Part shown: in pieces, positions 2,809-32,000 of the stretch
Numbering within the stretch: the stretch's first letter is position 1
Layout: every line of letters starts with the position of its first letter
DNA from: an uncultured archaeon
GTDB lineage: Archaea; Asgardarchaeota; Thorarchaeia; Thorarchaeales; Thorarchaeaceae
Direction: 5' to 3'
NCBI GenBank assembly: GCA_964354495.1
Contig: CAYHAA010000008.1
Coordinates: forward strand, 1-32,000
Length of the DNA stretch: 32,000 nt
Position numbers and translations under genes: made by a program
Notes under the pieces: generated by a model
Database searches by the model: none
What the model was told of the DNA's origin: nothing
The model's input: only the letters and a program-made list of their open reading frames with translations

Positions 2809-3621
2809 ATGGTGAAGATTCTTCCTACCGAGTTCACCTCAGAAGCAGAGACGATCAGGGGAAGATTCGTCCTTCCAAAGGGAAGAGGACCCTTCCCAGG
2901 TATTTGCAAGTTCCACGGACTTCCGGGTGAACCCGACCAGGTCAGTGGTGTTGCAACAAGGCTTGCTGAGGCTGGTTTTGCGGTTCTGACTTTTGACTTC
3001 AGGGGCTTCAGGCAGAGCGACGGACTGTTCTCTCTCGCGGGCGAGATTAAGGATGCCAGCGCAGCCATCTCACACCTGCTGGAGTCGGACCTGACGGTCG
3101 ATTCATGGTCCGGAGTGTACGCTGCAAGTTTTGGTGGAGCAGTCGCAGTCTGTACCTTGGCTGAGGATAGGCGTGCCAACGCGCTCTGCCTGCGGGCACC
3201 AGTCTATGACACGCTCTGGTTCGCCCAGTCACCAATGATTCGTCCCTCTGTTGATTCCATCGTTCAGACAGATCCCACTCAGATCCGTGGCATCGAAGAC
3301 CCGAAGATTCAGGCGCGACTACTTCGCGGGATGGTGAAAGATGCCAGAGTACACAATCCGATGAACGAGATCTCCAAGATATCACCATGTCCATTACTGA
3401 TTATCCATGGTAGTGATGATGTAGGTGTTGACCTAGCAGGAGTGAAGCGCCTATACGAACTGGCTGGCGAGCCAAAGGACCTGGTCATCGTAGAGGGCGC
3501 AGACCATAATCTCTCAGACCCCCGAGCATACGAGATAACTATGAGCACGGTGGTTGAATGGTTCAAGAAGCAGTGGATGAACCGTCGAAGGAAGGCAAAG
3601 AGTCGGAAGACTAGGGCATAG
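2809..3621 (+). CDS. Alpha/beta-fold hydrolase (esterase/peptidase-like)
   Basis: KFHGLPG, VLTFDFRGFRQSDG, nucleophile elbow YAASFGG, LLIIHGSDD (acid) and EGADH (His). Confidence 0.88.
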   Translation: MVKILPTEFTSEAETIRGRFVLPKGRGPFPGICKFHGLPGEPDQVSGVATRLAEAGFAVLTFDFRGFRQSDGLFSLAGEIKDASAAISHLLESDLTVDSWSGVYAASFGGAVAVCTLAEDRRANALCLRAPVYDTLWFAQSPMIRPSVDSIVQTDPTQIRGIEDPKIQARLLRGMVKDARVHNPMNEISKISPCPLLIIHGSDDVGVDLAGVKRLYELAGEPKDLVIVEGADHNLSDPRAYEITMSTVVEWFKKQWMNRRRKAKSRKTRA

Positions 3622-3690
3622 ACTGAAACTCTTCTGATAGCCAATGATATTTAACTGATATATCGCCAGTGTTGTCCTGAGGTCGTTGAT

Positions 3691-23949: not shown

Positions 23950-24306
23950 ATGTCATGAGCAGAAACAAACCATCGTTCATCTGGGGCGACTGGTCTAAGC
24001 CGATTCTGGTTAAGACCTGCCATACGAATGCCTGCATAGATGAGATCCCCAGAAACCAGCGGGCTCTCAGCCAGTCTTCTCGGCATAAGCAATCTTGATA
24101 GCTCCACCTAGGTGATTGCTTTTTAGCGAATAATCACATAGCATGTTGATGGTCTTATTACGATGGATGTAAAGGGATGGTGCTGCCAAACTGTGACGAA
24201 TCGAATTTGGCGGAATCTGTCATGCGGCATCTTGAGTTCAGATGTCGGTCCTCAGCCAGGAGCATCGACATACCCAAATCGATTCAGCCGTAGCAGGTGC
24301 CTCCTG

Positions 24307-24507
24307 TTGATTCGTTTCATCATCCTTTTTGCAATAGCGGCAACCCTATTCCAAGTCGCCATGCTTATACGACGTTACTTTCCCTCGGAACTCCTGATCC
24401 TCTCGGCTGCGCTTGTATTCTCAGTGCTTTTTCTCATTGGAGCATCAATATATTTCGTGAGAATCCTTAGACTGAGGTCTGAGGCCATGAGAATAAGAAC
24501 CCAGTAA
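24307..24507 (+). CDS. Small two-TM membrane protein (about 66 aa)
   Basis: Two clean hydrophobic helices in the 3' half of track ORF 24163-24507. TTG 24307 with AGGTG upstream is the likelier start. Confidence 0.5.
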   Translation: MIRFIILFAIAATLFQVAMLIRRYFPSELLILSAALVFSVLFLIGASIYFVRILRLRSEAMRIRTQ

Positions 24508-24634
24508 CAAAAAGGACTTAAATCGAGACCTGAATAGCAGGCTATGGTCTAGATACCCAAAAGCTGGCAGGCTCTCTTTCATTGAGTCCGACTCCTATGC
24601 GTTATACCTGAGTCATGCTGGCAGGCGATTGGAA

Positions 24635-24970
24635 ATGGCTACCACTGATAAACCACAGGGAGTGAGTAGGGATGAGTTTCTTTTTCGTGCATTTCTTGTC
24701 TTCGGGATTTGTGGCATTACTAGTGCTCTTCTTGACTTGGATCACTCTTGGAAGTATTTTGGCTTCGAGGAACCATTCAACTTTACGGGTTGGTATGGCA
24801 GACCTCTCCACAGTCCATTGGTGCTTCTGCTGGTCTCTCTCGCTCTTGGCATCATTCTGGTTTCACTTGGCTATGGACGGAATCTGGCAATTCCTCTATG
24901 GCTGACAGAGCAACACACCGAAGATGGTGAAGATCAGCAAGCAGACGGCCAATCTCAGAATAAGCAGTAG
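24635..24970 (+). CDS. Small membrane protein with DLDH...RPLH motif
   Basis: Two hydrophobic segments flanking LLDLDH and GRPLHS; acidic tail. Upstream TTG at 24629. Confidence 0.6.
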   Translation: MATTDKPQGVSRDEFLFRAFLVFGICGITSALLDLDHSWKYFGFEEPFNFTGWYGRPLHSPLVLLLVSLALGIILVSLGYGRNLAIPLWLTEQHTEDGEDQQADGQSQNKQ

Positions 24971-25280: not shown

Positions 25281-28200
25281 GTGAAGCGTCCGAGAAGTAT
25301 CATCTTTCTCACATGCACGTTCATTCTATTCGTGATGTTCTCCATGCACGCAGAGAATCCTCAGGAGATCATCCTCGTTACTAACCCGTCCTCACCACAC
25401 AATCAAGCAGTTCCCGCAGCAAACACCGAGGATTTTGTTGACCTGCTATCGGACCTTCACGCTCCTGCAGATTTGGGCACTCATGATGTCTTTGCTGATC
25501 TTCAGGACCATGGATCTAATTATGATGCCATGACCGAGGAAGACACTGGCGGATCTGCTGTCAACGAATACAGATATATTGATACAGCACCCGGGACGCC
25601 AGCTTGGAGTACGAACGGTTCAGCGCCATATCTCGATGCTCAAGATCAACCTACGAACTATATCTACACAATCACTAACAGTCTTGTATCTGGATGGTTC
25701 GAGTTTGCTGAAACCTCCGGCACAGGGACAGGTCTTAGCGTAAACTGCTCGGTCTATTGGGTAGCGGTTACTGACTCAAGTTTCTCATGGGAGATAGACT
25801 GGACAGGTGATGATGCAGCCGATGCTAGCGGTGGTGTCATCACGACGCAGACAACCTGGGGCTGGTCAGACTTAGGAACAATATCTGGACTTGACACCCA
25901 GACTGAGATTGATGCTGCGAGAATAAGATTCACCTACAATAAGGGTGGAGACCAACCTGACCAATGTAGTATAGACGCTGCTCGTATTGGTATACATCGG
26001 CTTGAAGCACTCAACTACCAATTAGACCTTGAGTGTGCATGGACTGCTGTTGATTATGGCGAAACTAACGGTGAATTATGTATCTATCCTGTCACCGGGG
26101 GTGGATGGCCTACTGAGGATATCATCGTAGATGTCTGGAATGGCACTTGGGTGAGTATGTTTTCGGGCCTCACGCCTGACACTTGGAACAATATAAGCAT
26201 CAGTAGTTGTTTGACGGGCTCTGCCTTTGAGATTCGATTCCTTGGTGGCACAGAAACTGGTGACACGGCACAGTCCACTTGGGAGATAGATGCGGTCCTA
26301 ATACACACATGGACTCCGATCTACGCTCCAGCAATAGATCAAGCACCTACCTTGGACAATCCAAGCGACACGGACAACCTGTATGCACAATACCAGGAGT
26401 ATCAAGTTACGGTCTATGTATCCGATCAGAATGGTTTCGGGGATATCGACTTCCTTGAGATTGGACTATGGGATGATACCTCGACCACAGAGTACTGCCG
26501 ATTCAGGTACGATGAGGACACGAACACTTTCACTGAGGAATATGACGCTGGGACCTATGTTACTCTAAACACAGGAAGCTCCACTGTAACAGAGAGCGGC
26601 AATGATATAAATGCGACCTTCTATCTCACAGTGGACTGGGATTTTCCTGACTCAACTGACTTGGATGCTAATTGCTCTGTGATAGATACCCAGGGGGAGT
26701 CTGCAACTACATGGTATGAGGTCGATTGGGATGTTGAAACCCGTCTTGGCTATTCGGTTACTCCGAGTATCGATGATGGCTCTGGGACTGCAGACAGAGG
26801 AAATCTTGACGGTTCGTTTTCATTGACTGGTACGGTCATCTACTATGATTCTGTGGATGACTATCCTTCTTCCTCAGCAGTCGATGTCTGGGTTTCCGCC
26901 TCTGAATATGGGACAGGTGTCGGTCCTTGGAGCGCCCTGACTCTCGACTCTGGTGCATTCGATGTCACCTGCTATGCTGATGATCAAGTCGGACTAACTC
27001 CAGATACATGCACAGTAAAGATTGTGGAAGAAGGTGCAGGTTCTGATGGTTCTGATTTGTACTTCTCAAGTAGCTTCACAGATACCTACATCGCAGACCA
27101 ATTGATCATCTCCATTACGGATCCAATGGACCAGAGAATCAACATTGGAGAGAATGCAACAGGTATTCTTGTATCGGCAGTCTATGACTATGATGATTCT
27201 CCGTTTGATGGGACATTGACTCTCAATGACACGACTTATAATTATGGGACAGCCGGACGGAGAGGATACAGTGTTTCATCAGCTTCTGGAGACACTCATG
27301 GAGTGTCATTCATCGGGATAGATGACGCCACATACTGTATCTGGGATTCGTTAACAGTTACAATCACGGACCCTGCAGATCAGCGAATCAACATAAACAC
27401 GAATGCAACTGGAATCATAGTTACAGCTATCTATGACTATGATGGAACTACGTTCGATGGAAGCCTCACTCTGAACAACACTCAATTTCAATATAGTACT
27501 GCTCAGATACAATACTATGCTGTACAATCTGTTGCCGGAGGAATCTATGGCATCACTATCATCTCGAGTAATGATGTGACGTGGTTCATCTGGGACTCAT
27601 TGACTATCACGATTGCTGGTCCTTCAGACCAACGAATCGACATAAACGCGAATGCAACAGGAATTGTCGTTACAGCGATATATGACTACGACGGAACCTC
27701 TTTTGATGGGATGCTCACCCTAAACAACACTCAGTATGATTATCCTACGGCGCAGATTCAGTGGTATACAGTGGGCTCAGTGAATGGAGGTATTCACGGA
27801 ATCACTGCCATCTCCTCTAATGATATGACGTGGTGTATCTGGGACTCCTTGACAATCACAATCACCGATCCCGCAGACCAAAGGCAGAACGTGAATGTGA
27901 ACGCGACAGGTATCTTTGTAACTGCAATATACGACTACGATGGTTCAGTCTTTGATGGCGCTCTCAGCTTGAATAACACTCAGTACATTTACAGCACAGC
28001 CCAGAGGCAGGACTATACGGTTAATCTGGTCAGTGGTGGGACTCACGGAATCACCGCTATCTCCGCAAATGATGTGACCTGGTTTATTTGGGACTCCTTG
28101 ACGATCACAATCACCGATCCGCCAGATCAACGAATCAACATAGGCACAGCAGCTACAGGAATCGTTGCAACAGCGATATACGATTATGATGGAACAGCAT

Positions 28201-31200
28201 TTGATGGAACGCTCACCCTGAACAACACTCAATTTCAGTACGGTGCGGCTCAGATCCAATACTATACGGTTCAATCTGTAACCGGTGGAATTCATGGCGT
28301 CACAGCAGTCTCATCAAATGACGTGACTTGGTGTATCTGGGACTCATTAACGATAACAATCACTGACCCTGTCGACCAACGACAGAATGCAAATGTCAAC
28401 GCCACAGGCATCTTTGCTTCTGCAGTCTATGACTATGACGGATCATCATTTGATGGGACGCTCACCCTGAATAACACCCAATTCAGTTATCCGACTGCAC
28501 AACGGCAAGGTTACACTGTTCAATCTGTCAGTGGTGGGGCTCATGGAATCACAGCAATCTCAACAAATGACGCGACCTACTTTATCTGGGATTCACTAAC
28601 CATTCTAATCACAGACCCAGCTGATCACCGTATCAATGTAAACACTGCAGCATCAGGAGTCACTGCTACAGCAGTATACGATTATGACGGAACTGCCTTT
28701 GATGGCACACTCACTCTTAACAACACTCAGTTTACCTATTCCACTGCACAGATTCAATGGTATACAGTCGGGTCTGCAAGTGGCGGAATACACGGAATAT
28801 CCGCCATCAACACCAATGATGTTACTTGGTGCATCTGGGACTCGCTAACCATCACAATGACCGACCCGGTGGATCAACGTATCAATATCAATGCTAATGC
28901 GACCGGGATACTTGTGTCAGCCACGTATGACTATGATTTAACTCCCTATGGTGGCTCTCTAGTTCTGAATGACACGATATACAGTGATTCATCTGTTGGG
29001 CATAGAGGATACACTGTGCTCAGTGCGACTGGCGACGATGCATATGGAATTACTGCCATCTCAGTCAATGACGAAACGTGGTGTATATGGGACCAGGTGA
29101 TTGTTCTTTCGTACTCAAGCGATGACTCCCGGATTGATATCAATACGGCTTGCACGTGCCATGCTGAACTCCGGTATGCATACGACTACAGCTATGTAAT
29201 AGCTGGCATAGTCACTGTCAATGGATTAAGTGCTACCTACTCTGGAGCTAGTGGCATCTGGAACTTCGGTGAGACCCGCGTGAGTGTACAGATGCTCACA
29301 TATGATAATGTAGTCACTTCAGGAAATCAACACGGAATCAGTGTCGTCAATCAGAACGGTCAGACACAGTCTCAGATCTGGGACAGAGTGCAAGTGCAGT
29401 CATATACTGTGACGGACTCCCGAGTAAACGTTGGCGATTCGGTGAATGTTGATGTCACACTCTATTATGACTACGACAATTCTCAAGTGACTGATGGCAT
29501 AGTCACAATAGACTCGATAGTGGCAACCAATCGGGGATCAGGCATCTGGAGGATATCCGTCAGCGAGCTGTCTGTGGTGGGAAACACCTATGATACAGTT
29601 GTAGTGTCTGGGAACTCCTATGGAATAGCAGCCGTTGACCAGAACAGTCAGGCGCAGCTTGTGATTTGGGACCAGGTTGTAGTACAAGGATACGTGGTAG
29701 CCGATGCTCGGGTGAATATCGGCACGAGCGTAAATGTCGATGTGGCTCTCGCGTATGCGTATGACAGCGCACCAGTTATAGATGGTACGGTACTAATCAA
29801 CACCCTCCCAGCCACTCACCAAGGCGCTGGAGTCTGGAGGTTGGTGCAATCAAGGAGCGTCGCACAAGGTGTTACGTACAGCAGCATAGCATGTAGCGGA
29901 AACACTAATGGGATAAGCTTGGTCAACCAAAATGGGCAGTCACAACAGGTCATCTGGGATAGCCTGACGATTACCATAACTAATCCCACAGACCAGCGCA
30001 TAAACATAGGTGAAAACGCATCTGGAATGGTCGTCACAGCTGTCTATGACTACGACTCCACTCCCTATGATGGCACACTCACCCTCAACAATACAGTATT
30101 CACCTATGCTGTCGTGGGCAGACAGGGGTACACAGCCGCGAGTGCAGCTGGTAATGACGCCTATGGGATCACCGTCATACGCGTCAACGACCAGACGTGG
30201 TGTATATGGGACCAGGTCGTGGTCGTTTCCTATTCCTCAGGTGACTCACGTATCAATGTGGGCGCATCCAGTTCGTGCCATGTCATACTGCATTATGACT
30301 ATGACGAAGCAATCGTGGTTGATGGCACTGTAACTGTCAATGGTGTTGGTGCGACCTATTCAGGTTCGAATGGAGTGTGGGACTTCAGTGAGATCAAGGT
30401 AGCAGTCCAGCTCTTTACTTATGACAGTGTTCTAGCGTCAGGTAATACGTATGGCATAGATACGACTGACCAGAATGGGCGGAGTCTCGGCCAGATCTGG
30501 GACAGGGCGCAAGTGCAGTCATATACTGTGACGGATTCTCGCGTTAACGTGGGTGATAACGTAAACATTGACGTGATCTTGCGCTACGACTATGATGACT
30601 CATTTGTGACTGATGGAAGTGTGACCATCAATGGTCTGGCAGCCACATATCAAGGGTTAGGGGTCTGGAGAGCTGTCGATTCTGAATCATCAGTTGTGTC
30701 GAACACCTACAACTTGGTAGTGGTGTCAGGCAATTCTAACGGTATCTCTGTTGTAGATCAGAACAGCCAGTCGCAACAGGTCGTCTGGGACCGCATCATC
30801 GTGAGAGGATTCACTGTCGTCGATGCAAGAGTCAACTTGAATGACATAGTCAACATTGATGTTGAACTCGAATACGAATACGACAGCACTGACCTTATGG
30901 ATGGTTCCGTGAGTGTGAGCGGTGTTTCCGCCACCTATCAGGGACTTGGCATATGGCGAATAACAGTTGCAGAGGCCGCTGTGACTGGAAGCACATACAA
31001 CTCTGTTAGTTGCACAGGGAACGGCCAAGGGATCACTGCCGTATACCAGAACGGGCAGACCCAGCTTGTCGTGTGGGACCAGGTGGCCGTGAGAGGCTAT
31101 TCGGTTGCAGACAGCAGAGTGAATCTGGGCACCGGTGTCAACGTTGAAGTAGCGCTGGAATACGAGTACGATGACAGTCCCGTGACTGATGGTGCAGTCA

Positions 31201-32000
31201 CGATAAATGGATTGAGTGCAAGCCACATAGGATCTGGTGTCTGGCGAGTAACAGACACAGAGATCATTGTGATTTCCAACGTATACAACGCAGTGGTGTG
31301 CTCTGGCAATTCATATGGCATAACGAATGTGAACCAGAACGGGCAGATACAGGAGGTCATATGGGACCAAGTGACCGTGAGGGGCTATTCTGCCTCGGAT
31401 ACCCGTGATAATGTAGGGGACTCAATCATAGTCTACGTTGTGCTGGAATACGAGTACGACGACTCTGATGTGACCAATGGCATAGTCGTAGTAGATGGCG
31501 TTACATTCACCTACACGGGCTCTAATGGCCAGTGGTCCGCCACTAGGATTCAAGCCGCTGTCACCTCGGAAACCTATGATTCTGTGACAGTATCTGGAAA
31601 CACTCATGGAATCACTTCTGTGAACCAGAATGCGCAAGCTATCATAATCATATGGGACAGGGTTCAGGTCCAATCGTATCTTGTATCGGATCCCCGTGTC
31701 AATGTCGGCGATGGTGTGATCGTTGATGTGACACTCTACTATGACTTTGATAACTCACCACTGATTGATGGCACAGTGACCATCAACGGAATCCTTGCCG
31801 CGAATCAAGGGTCCGGCATCTGGAGAATCACCGACTCCGAGGTATCTGTGGGAGATAACACCTACAACAATGTTGCAGTATCCGGGAATACTTTAGGAAT
31901 TACTGTTGTTGACCAGAGTTCGCAGTCCACGACTATCATCTGGGACCGGATAATTGTGATTGCACTCTATTCGGACGATACCCGCATCAATGTTGGCACA
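25281..32000 (+). CDS. Giant secreted tandem-repeat surface protein, >2240 aa, runs off the right window edge
   Basis: Absent from the ORF track because there is no stop in the window. AGGAGG RBS, GTG start and signal peptide MKRPRSIIFLTCTFILFVMFSMHA. The same frame gives coherent protein at checked points 25683, 26043, 27123, 29103, 30003 and 31923, and through the repeats. Confidence 0.92.
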   Translation, partial: MKRPRSIIFLTCTFILFVMFSMHAENPQEIILVTNPSSPHNQAVPAANTEDFVDLLSDLHAPADLGTHDVFADLQDHGSNYDAMTEEDTGGSAVNEYRYIDTAPGTPAWSTNGSAPYLDAQDQPTNYIYTITNSLVSGWFEFAETSGTGTGLSVNCSVYWVAVTDSSFSWEIDWTGDDAADASGGVITTQTTWGWSDLGTISGLDTQTEIDAARIRFTYNKGGDQPDQCSIDAARIGIHRLEALNYQLDLECAWTAVDYGETNGELCIYPVTGGGWPTEDIIVDVWNGTWVSMFSGLTPDTWNNISISSCLTGSAFEIRFLGGTETGDTAQSTWEIDAVLIHTWTPIYAPAIDQAPTLDNPSDTDNLYAQYQEYQVTVYVSDQNGFGDIDFLEIGLWDDTSTTEYCRFRYDEDTNTFTEEYDAGTYVTLNTGSSTVTESGNDINATFYLTVDWDFPDSTDLDANCSVIDTQGESATTWYEVDWDVETRLGYSVTPSIDDGSGTADRGNLDGSFSLTGTVIYYDSVDDYPSSSAVDVWVSASEYGTGVGPWSALTLDSGAFDVTCYADDQVGLTPDTCTVKIVEEGAGSDGSDLYFSSSFTDTYIADQLIISITDPMDQRINIGENATGILVSAVYDYDDSPFDGTLTLNDTTYNYGTAGRRGYSVSSASGDTHGVSFIGIDDATYCIWDSLTVTITDPADQRININTNATGIIVTAIYDYDGTTFDGSLTLNNTQFQYSTAQIQYYAVQSVAGGIYGITIISSNDVTWFIWDSLTITIAGPSDQRIDINANATGIVVTAIYDYDGTSFDGMLTLNNTQYDYPTAQIQWYTVGSVNGGIHGITAISSNDMTWCIWDSLTITITDPADQRQNVNVNATGIFVTAIYDYDGSVFDGALSLNNTQYIYSTAQRQDYTVNLVSGGTHGITAISANDVTWFIWDSLTITITDPPDQRINIGTAATGIVATAIYDYDGTAFDGTLTLNNTQFQYGAAQIQYYTVQSVTGGIHGVTAVSSNDVTWCIWDSLTITITDPVDQRQNANVNATGIFASAVYDYDGSSFDGTLTLNNTQFSYPTAQRQGYTVQSVSGGAHGITAISTNDATYFIWDSLTILITDPADHRINVNTAASGVTATAVYDYDGTAFDGTLTLNNTQFTYSTAQIQWYTVGSASGGIHGISAINTNDVTWCIWDSLTITMTDPVDQRININANATGILVSATYDYDLTPYGGSLVLNDTIYSDSSVGHRGYTVLSATGDDAYGITAISVNDETWCIWDQVIVLSYSSDDSRIDINTACTCHAELRYAYDYSYVIAGIVTVNGLSATYSGASGIWNFGETRVSVQMLTYDNVVTSGNQHGISVVNQNGQTQSQIWDRVQVQSYTVTDSRVNVGDSVNVDVTLYYDYDNSQVTDGIVTIDSIVATNRGSGIWRISVSELSVVGNTYDTVVVSGNSYGIAAVDQNSQAQLVIWDQVVVQGYVVADARVNIGTSVNVDVALAYAYDSAPVIDGTVLINTLPATHQGAGVWRLVQSRSVAQGVTYSSIACSGNTNGISLVNQNGQSQQVIWDSLTITITNPTDQRINIGENASGMVVTAVYDYDSTPYDGTLTLNNTVFTYAVVGRQGYTAASAAGNDAYGITVIRVNDQTWCIWDQVVVVSYSSGDSRINVGASSSCHVILHYDYDEAIVVDGTVTVNGVGATYSGSNGVWDFSEIKVAVQLFTYDSVLASGNTYGIDTTDQNGRSLGQIWDRAQVQSYTVTDSRVNVGDNVNIDVILRYDYDDSFVTDGSVTINGLAATYQGLGVWRAVDSESSVVSNTYNLVVVSGNSNGISVVDQNSQSQQVVWDRIIVRGFTVVDARVNLNDIVNIDVELEYEYDSTDLMDGSVSVSGVSATYQGLGIWRITVAEAAVTGSTYNSVSCTGNGQGITAVYQNGQTQLVVWDQVAVRGYSVADSRVNLGTGVNVEVALEYEYDDSPVTDGAVTINGLSASHIGSGVWRVTDTEIIVISNVYNAVVCSGNSYGITNVNQNGQIQEVIWDQVTVRGYSASDTRDNVGDSIIVYVVLEYEYDDSDVTNGIVVVDGVTFTYTGSNGQWSATRIQAAVTSETYDSVTVSGNTHGITSVNQNAQAIIIIWDRVQVQSYLVSDPRVNVGDGVIVDVTLYYDFDNSPLIDGTVTINGILAANQGSGIWRITDSEVSVGDNTYNNVAVSGNTLGITVVDQSSQSTTIIWDRIIVIALYSDDTRINVGT
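27093..32000 (+). repeat. Intragenic tandem array: 9 type-A units (249/252 bp) and 9 complete plus 1 partial type-B units (288/291 bp)
   Basis: Unit starts (W-D codons; A-D for the first). Type A: 27093, 27342, 27591, 27840, 28089, 28338, 28587, 28836 and 29955. Type B: 29088, 29379, 29667, 30207, 30498, 30786, 31074, 31362, 31653 and 31941 (partial). Confidence 0.92.

Follow-up and report, generated by a model that had tools for sequence, protein, structure and literature searches.

A giant tandem Ig-like protein of a Thorarchaeaceae archaeon as a candidate glycosylated, membrane-anchored fibrillar adhesin

Giant surface proteins with stalks of tandem immunoglobulin-like (Ig-like) domains are well known in bacteria and occur in archaea. 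The fibrillar adhesins of bacteria set a distinct tip domain on such a stalk, with short linkers or none between its units, and whole-unit variation in copy number is usual for adhesin stalks. Asgard archaea have surface proteins of their own to account for. Cryo-electron tomography of Lokiarchaeum showed a cell without an S-layer and with unidentified complex surface proteins (PMC9834061), and the proteomics of Promethearchaeum turned up no S-layer protein (PMC11284389). Protruding Asgard surface proteins are thought to mediate the cell–cell contacts that figure centrally in ideas about how eukaryotes arose (PMC9834061). Our literature search returned no paper naming such complex surface proteins in Thorarchaeota. 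Here we describe a gene from an uncultured archaeon of the family Thorarchaeaceae (Asgardarchaeota). It begins in a stretch of 32,000 nucleotides, which we call the window: the first 32 kb of contig CAYHAA010000008.1 (contig C8) of assembly GCA_964354495.1, a genome of 3.3 Mb in 51 contigs with 97.7% completeness. The gene encodes a protein of 4658 residues that runs from a signal peptide-like start through a head of about 600 aa and 40 linker-less units to a membrane helix and a cytosolic domain of 109 aa. The reading we favor, and think fairly probable, is that of a glycosylated fibrillar adhesin, anchored in the membrane, with a head resembling carbohydrate-binding modules (CBMs) on an Ig-like stalk. 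The giant protein is thus a candidate for the surface structures seen on Asgard cells.

Gene, anchor and repeat units

Only the 5′ half of the gene lies in the window. There the open reading frame (ORF), at 25281..32000 on the + strand, starts with GTG and reaches the window's edge without a stop, after 2240 aa. An initial annotation of the window, made from its letters alone, had proposed a giant ORF of more than 2240 aa, and the frame is real: on the whole contig it continues from 25281 to 39257 (+). Following it past the window end brought 21 more complete units, a second copy of a module of 260 aa and, at the far end, the anchor that the annotation could not see, a C-terminal membrane helix (aa 4524–4545) with the 109-aa domain in the tail behind it. 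Kyte–Doolittle hydropathy exceeds 1.9 in just two segments of the 4658-aa protein, aa 6–24 and aa 4524–4545. The first of these belongs to the N terminus (aa 1–24, window 25281..25352, +), where a basic KRPR precedes the hydrophobic stretch as in signal peptides, which is what had been claimed for it; behind the second come RRTRRR and some 115 aa of tail, which places a cell-surface anchor opposite the head. With one hydrophobic segment at each end and none between, the layout is that of a secreted, C-terminally anchored type-I membrane protein. A hydrophobic segment past the last unit is found in 109 of 151 family proteins, followed by tails of 2 to about 500 aa.

The stalk is made of units, which we delimited by cutting at a W-D anchor and from which we built a unit profile. 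By this profile the whole protein has 40 of them, the tandem-repeat stalk of a fibrillar adhesin: 16 short (type A, 81–84 aa) and 24 long (type B), most of the latter 96–99 aa and the degenerate ones close to the C terminus 92–113 aa. The first unit starts at aa 605, behind the roughly 600 aa of N-terminal nonrepeat sequence noted at the outset. Between aa 605 and 2220 the window holds 18 complete contiguous units (the annotation had counted at least 18) in the order eight short, three long, one short, six long. The eight short units of 83–84 aa (aa 605–1269, 27093..29087, +) each carry N-glycosylation sequons at unit position 21, 45 or both. Three long units of 96–97 aa follow (aa 1270–1558, 29088..29954, +), free of sequons, and then one short unit (aa 1559–1642, 29955..30206, +), which opens the second copy of an A-B-B-B super-repeat. 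Six more long units (aa 1643–2220, 30207..31940, +), again without sequons, lead to a nineteenth that begins at aa 2221 and is cut by the window end (31941..32000, +) in a gene that runs on to contig position 39257. The units adjoin directly, with no linker.

All 40 units can be aligned over their full length, type B being type A with an insertion of 13 residues, and W1, D2, D13, D33, G40, Y71 and G82 are each at least 90% conserved in the alignment. In 774 units from homologous proteins the conserved residues are D2 (99%), D33 (93%), G40 (87%), G82 (84%), Y32 (82%) and R15 (81%); position 13 is acidic in 80% of them and position 31 in 72%. The two length classes had been suspected of being one fold; the full-length alignment, the single insert and a shared fold in the structure model described below bear this out. 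Individual units match the profile down to E 3e-33 and are under purifying selection (dN 0.13–0.27, dS at least 1.5 or saturated, dN/dS about 0.1), so the repeat pattern is far beyond chance. Neighboring A units are 63–75% identical in DNA, and the units are old duplicates rather than recent copies.

A long repeat in a draft genome invites suspicion, and we asked ourselves whether the region might be an artefact, either a collapsed, expanded or chimeric stretch of assembly or a frame that does not code. The source is, after all, a metagenome-type assembly in 51 contigs and the region is repetitive. But the 13.9-kb gene contains no repeated 31-mer, and together with the modest DNA identity between units and the low dN/dS this makes assembly collapse and a noncoding frame very unlikely. 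Hundreds of homologues share the architecture. Contigs from wetland metagenomes of three studies match the gene at 90–97% identity and differ from it by whole units only. In two of the studies contigs from related strains carry extra units: one more A unit (+249 nt, exactly 83 aa) at window 27401–27631, and about +3744 nt (13 × 288, about 13 extra B units) at contig 32766–32836. Since the length differences equal whole units, unit number varies stepwise between related strains; as these contigs come from relatives, they leave the exact copy number of the present assembly unverified, and the lack of contigs over some stretches of the gene in some runs is uninformative. On balance we regard an artefact as having a negligible chance.

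Is the unit a known domain? The initial annotation could not assign it to a named family, and in essence that judgment holds. Scanned one by one against Pfam with a limit of E 10, the 40 units gave no family match beyond scattered noise, NCBIfam gave none, and sequence and profile searches of the PDB with the units gave nothing below E 0.18; in these searches no unit significantly matched Big_1, Big_3_5, Big_12, MG domains, PKD or cadherin. A language-model search found weak Big_3_5/MG4-type neighbors only (feature score 0.82). The part of the claim that needs amending concerns Pfam DUF7738 (PF24880), which collects 80.2 bits summed over six stretches of the A array against a sequence cut-off of 24.6 bits, and is a precomputed label on many A-rich homologues. 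This match covers profile positions of about 40–98 of 103 at some 13 bits per unit, no single unit reaches it at E up to 10, and the B units lack it. In 201 Asgard genomes the best single DUF7738 matches score 21–22 bits, all within giant genes, and our literature search found no paper that mentions the family. Being partial, low in bits per unit and absent from B, it is a weak partial resemblance rather than the full-length match that would remove the novelty; no strong full-length match to a described Ig-like or S-layer family came from Pfam, NCBIfam or the PDB. Other Pfam matches on the repeats, among them TamB (43.6 bits summed), MerB and F-93, are short, partial and below their cut-offs, and we read them as beta-strand-repeat noise.

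The family has a well-defined home. A search of 1.84 billion proteins with the 40-unit profile retrieved 914 cluster representatives (50% identity) within E 1e-3. Of these, 309 lie within E 1e-30, and the 40 best of the 914 have 7–25 units and lengths up to about 4800 aa. Every organism-named homologue is a “Candidatus Thorarchaeota archaeon” or a “Promethearchaeota archaeon”. Among 301 sampled genomes of the phylum the unit occurs in 52: the window's own genome, 46 of 76 others from its family, and five genomes of three other families with weak matches only; unit-bearing open frames in this sample reach 6620 aa. The profile search across Asgard archaea that the annotation had in mind thus gives a family which, in genomes, is nearly confined to one Asgard family with Thorarchaeota as its named members. 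Our literature searches among papers on Thorarchaeota or on Asgard giant surface proteins found no description of it. What is new here is a lineage-restricted domain family absent from databases, in two length classes, one with fixed sequons and one bare, along with the recurrent 260-aa module and a conserved cytosolic domain.

The same genome has other members. A paralogue, P0004, on contig C10 (67727–77797, −) has 3357 aa and 24 units, mostly of the 83-aa type A, behind an N-terminal hydrophobic segment; its tail past the membrane helix is a different one, of about 250 aa, acidic and proline-rich with internal repeats. On contig C8 itself a convergent neighbor at 41128–46098 (−) encodes 1657 aa with one weak unit (E 4.6e-6); this protein has a hydrophobic segment at its N terminus and, at the C terminus, a membrane helix with a basic/charged tail. 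Directly upstream of the giant gene are two ORFs of 114 and 113 aa (window 24163–24507 and 24629–24970, +) with no Pfam match.

Fold, junctions and reach of the stalk

To see the units in context we gave AlphaFold2 an alignment (A3) of four-unit windows from 76 homologous stretches. The model, of aa 1103–1462, spans two A units, the last two of the eight-unit array, and two B units; it has a mean pLDDT of 97.7 and a pTM of 0.83 and is all beta, with 7–8 strands per unit. Each unit's final strand passes straight into the W1-D2 of the next, in keeping with the earlier statement that there are no linkers. Foldseek against the PDB returned tandem Ig-like arrays: the S-layer proteins Sap and EA1, C3/CVF macroglobulin domains, the RTX adhesin extender 6xi1, FdeC and GhpA. 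VIA-align gave Z scores of 9.3–8.0 against ICAM-5, the GhpA neck (9flp, Z 9.0), FdeC (4e9l, Z 9.0), invasin (1cwv, Z 8.4), titin and intimin, and for single domains Z of about 7 with an rmsd of about 3 Å over 82–88 residues against the alpha2-macroglobulin MG domain 2p9r and Ig-like domains of GH2. Neighbors in the ESM Atlas are arrays of Big_12, Big_3_5, LapA and MG4; the highest TM is 0.61, over 324 residues (Big_12 arrays 0.58–0.61). A beta-sandwich had been proposed, and a multiunit model followed by a fold search was the way suggested to check it; the model is confident, and the top structural neighbors are all tandem Ig-like arrays. No specific structural relative stands out among them. 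By the model the units are generic Ig-like sandwiches, whose likeness to adhesin stalks, S-layer proteins and macroglobulin domains is at the level of the fold only.

The strand order of the model puts positions 13, 31 and 33 in the loops of a unit's C-terminal pole, adjoining D2 of the next unit. Four acidic positions (2, 13, 31 and 33) should therefore meet at every junction. Acidic residues that meet at domain junctions form the Ca2+-site geometry of cadherins and of RTX-adhesin extenders. The junction cluster of the model may bind Ca2+ in this manner or form salt bridges with the conserved Arg15, and either could stiffen the rod; the annotation's idea of stabilization by Ca2+ is plausible on this topology. 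That the units follow one another without linkers, and that four of them together reach a pTM of 0.83, suggests a defined, rod-like arrangement and with it the stiffness first proposed. How far would such a rod reach? Tandem Ig arrays measure about 4 nm per Ig-like domain. By that analogy 40 units and two modules would give a stalk on the order of 150–200 nm if fully extended, and the “tens of nm” first proposed for it is probably an underestimate.

Head, sequons and charge

What might such a stalk carry? We modeled the head from aa 40 to aa 604 (mean pLDDT 76). It opens with an acidic segment that is predicted to be disordered (aa 25–93, 25353..25559, +; pLDDT 36–39 from aa 40, where the model starts). 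Within it, at aa 40–93 (window 25398–25559), lies a conserved motif of about 45 aa, LHAP..G.H..F..LQD....YD..TE, which occurs once in the giant protein and is duplicated in the paralogue P0004 and in the homologues P0016, P0022 and P0037. The motif could be a propeptide, a processing site or a binding site. Next comes a beta jelly roll of the CBM type (aa 94–243, 25560..26009, +). VIA-align matched it at Z 9–10.3, with an rmsd of about 3 Å over 120–133 residues, to CBM35, CBM16, CBM4, CBM6, CBM29, CBM61, CBM32, Cry toxin domain III and PAPP-A; a Pfam search of aa 94–243 gave no match. This jelly roll, in a model of moderate confidence, is our candidate for a distal adhesive domain. A second head domain of about 100 aa follows (aa 244–343, 26010..26309, +), and query residues 243–345 match twice in each of P0004, P0016, P0022, P0037, P0013 and P0007. 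The head ends in the beta module of about 260 aa (aa 344–604, 26310..27092, +), modeled with pLDDT 95–98, whose structure matches are Ig/FN3 arrays and which is probably two or three Ig/FN3-like domains. It recurs at aa 2763–3011, beyond the window, and most homologues have 2–3 copies. A degenerate copy of the unit it is not, at least at the profile level (hhalign probability 0.6%).

Homologues join the same stalk units to other heads (DUF2341, Laminin_G_3, Laminin_G_2, PKD and CARDB), and one stalk behind varied lectin-like heads is what one expects where binding domains can be exchanged on a common support. The window also holds, at 11167–13578 (+), a gene for a protein of 803 aa with CBM96 (E 3e-19) and the Ig-like domains Ig_Rha78A_N and Big_7, by its sequence probably another secreted glycan-binding protein.

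Glycans may come into the story in a second way, on the stalk itself. The annotation had seen two sequons in most A units. In the 16 short units we count 30, placed at unit positions 21 and 45, against 18.0 ± 3.8 in shuffles (30 is reached by 0.2% of them); the fourteen core B units of 96–97 aa (aa 1270–2317 and 3305–3689) have one in total. The sites are conserved across homologues, where 266 short units have a sequon at position 45 in 91% and at position 21 in 55%, and where short units average 1.92 sequons against 1.04 ± 0.05 when shuffled and long units 1.38 against 1.38. In the AlphaFold2 model both positions lie outside strands. The genome encodes the oligosaccharyltransferase STT3/AglB (170 bits), so that conserved sequons in exposed loops and the enzyme to use them, the sequence marks of an archaeal N-glycoprotein, are both present. 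About 7 kb downstream of the giant gene, behind both surface-protein genes, contig C8 has a glycan-synthesis cluster (46742–59788) with a GT4 glycosyltransferase, a Wzx-type flippase, a CE4 deacetylase, DUF354, a radical SAM/SPASM protein and two FemAB-like acyl/aminoacyl transferases. Conservation of the sequons, the STT3/AglB gene and the nearby cluster together make N-glycosylation of the short units likely. Going by sequence, then, N-glycans probably sit on the short units, at two fixed loop positions, and leave the long units bare.

The ectodomain is also very acidic. Its net charge is −346; lysine accounts for 15 of 4492 residues (0.3%) and arginine for 3.4%, whereas lysine makes up 4.8% of the long ORFs of the genome and 2.2% of the homologues. 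Protease resistance or avoidance of modification are possible reasons for the depletion. Charge of this kind brings up a different role for the protein, that of a surface coat or spacer, in which many copies would form a glycosylated acidic brush, a glycocalyx or a substitute for an S-layer, with no specific ligand; the brush would protect a wall-less cell and set its distance to its surroundings. The charge and the scarcity of lysine fit a coat, as do the conserved sequons, the presence of Sap, EA1 and the Nitrosopumilus S-layer among the fold matches, the two or three such genes per genome and the absence of an ordered S-layer from Asgard cells. The anatomy does not. A rod of 4658 aa with a distinct head is built like an adhesin and not like a lattice former, the heads are swapped among homologues while the stalk is kept, unit number varies among strains, and we saw no sign here of lateral self-assembly or of very high expression. 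We take a coat to be rather unlikely, while giving it more weight than any other alternative we considered.

The adhesin that we favor instead would work as follows. After export and removal of the signal peptide, the C-terminal helix would hold the protein in the single cell membrane, with the conserved helical domain of 109 aa remaining in the cytoplasm. Outside the cell the 40 linker-less Ig-like units would form a long, acidic, rod-like stalk, interrupted by the two 260-aa Ig/FN3-like modules. The stalk would hold the lectin-like tip, the N-terminal jelly roll, far out to bind polysaccharide, particles or partner cells. The short units would be glycosylated at two loops, and acidic residues at the junctions would bind Ca2+ or Arg15 and so stiffen the rod. 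The filament or adhesin of the initial annotation has in this way acquired the anatomy of one anchored to a cell: it starts with a signal peptide and a CBM-like head, and past the window end it closes with a membrane helix and a cytosolic tail.

Several things weigh against this picture. The fold behind the CBM-like match is a very common one; the match has a Z of about 10, is without sequence support and lies in a moderately confident part of the model (pLDDT 70–88), followed by a domain modeled at pLDDT 45–53. The geometry of the rod and the clustering of acidic residues are read from pTM and strand topology. Over the ectodomain as a whole, enrichment in sequons was rejected (57 against 54 ± 6 by chance), which confines the signal to the short units. 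Adhesion, surface location and glycans are themselves deduced from sequence and model. As for expression, none of the listed runs containing DNA of the gene is on record as RNA, and the 8% of sampled words from its 5′ end that occur in one wetland metatranscriptome are not evidence.

The cytosolic domain and relation to known systems

The 109-aa cytosolic domain of the giant protein has 20 invariant columns among six sequences of 33–78% identity. Apart from the window's own genome, 17 of 76 genomes from the same family have it at the end of giant frames (1924–6620 aa), usually once each. Searches of Pfam and NCBIfam with it gave no match, and a prediction with two copies (ipSAE 0.01 against a mark of 0.42) decides self-association neither way. 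Since tails in the family span 2 to about 500 aa, the long folded tail is specific to this orthologue group. Could it be the business end of an adhesion receptor with outside-in coupling, whose ectodomain binds a partner and whose cytosolic domain signals inward to the cytoskeleton, small GTPases or adaptor proteins, as with cadherins and integrins? The degree of conservation, the regular appearance of the domain at the C terminus of giant frames and its restriction to one orthologue group would all suit a receptor. Yet the tail has no match in Pfam or NCBIfam, the convergent neighbor gene has just a weak TPR match, and a folded tail may merely stabilize the anchor. A signaling receptor seems to us improbable. 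The neighbor in question encodes 490 aa at contig 39352–40824 (−), converging on the giant gene 94 nt from its stop, and its match is to TPR_1 at E 0.0055.

One can put the pieces together more boldly. On that view, to which we give only a slim chance, the family supplies the “complex surface proteins” of the Thorarchaeia: rods of more than 100 nm, stiffened by cations and partly coated with glycans, which bear interchangeable lectin-like heads and are wired inward through the cytosolic domain. If that were true, the family would amount to an adhesion-receptor system of the cadherin or integrin kind in the archaeal relatives of eukaryotes, and would serve the syntrophic cell–cell contacts that models of eukaryogenesis invoke. 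The gene and its roughly 900 relatives are concrete molecular candidates for the surface structures of Thorarchaeota. The unit merits a family entry of its own, with which giant “hypothetical proteins” become annotatable. And the family offers things to work with: a very confidently modeled domain that is absent from databases, a head that can be tested against glycans, fixed glycosylation sites and a cytosolic domain to use as bait.

How, finally, does the thorarchaeal protein stand beside the systems we know? With the bacterial fibrillar adhesins, that is, invasin, intimin and FdeC with Big_1 domains, the RTX adhesins LapA, SiiE and Aeromonas 6xi1, and GhpA (9flp), it shares giant size, a stalk of tandem Ig-like domains joined directly or by short linkers, a tip domain distinct from the stalk and a strain-variable number of units, and its fold matches theirs at Z 8–9, with TM up to 0.6 for four units. 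It differs in having no sequence relation to them, in being archaeal, and in repeats that diverged anciently and are not near-identical. The anchors differ too: here a C-terminal helix with a folded cytosolic domain, in the bacterial proteins an outer-membrane beta-barrel, a retention module of the type I secretion system or a sortase signal. The archaeal Ig-like surface proteins, namely the Big_3_5/MG4/Big_1 arrays of methanogens and the Nitrosopumilus S-layer (8c8k–8c8r), are likewise tandem Ig-like and are its nearest neighbors by language model and fold, but the likeness goes no further than the fold (feature score 0.82, Z about 6), and the thorarchaeal protein is far longer, with a membrane anchor and a cytosolic domain. 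To the S-layer proteins as a group, Sap, EA1 and that of Nitrosopumilus, it is matched only in fold, as a protein known from its gene and model. A last comparison is with the classical cadherins. They have no sequence or specific fold relation to the thorarchaeal protein, and the likeness is one of function by analogy only; within that analogy, both would be single-pass proteins that place a tandem beta-sandwich ectodomain, with predicted acidic residues at its junctions, on one side of the membrane and a conserved cytosolic domain on the other.

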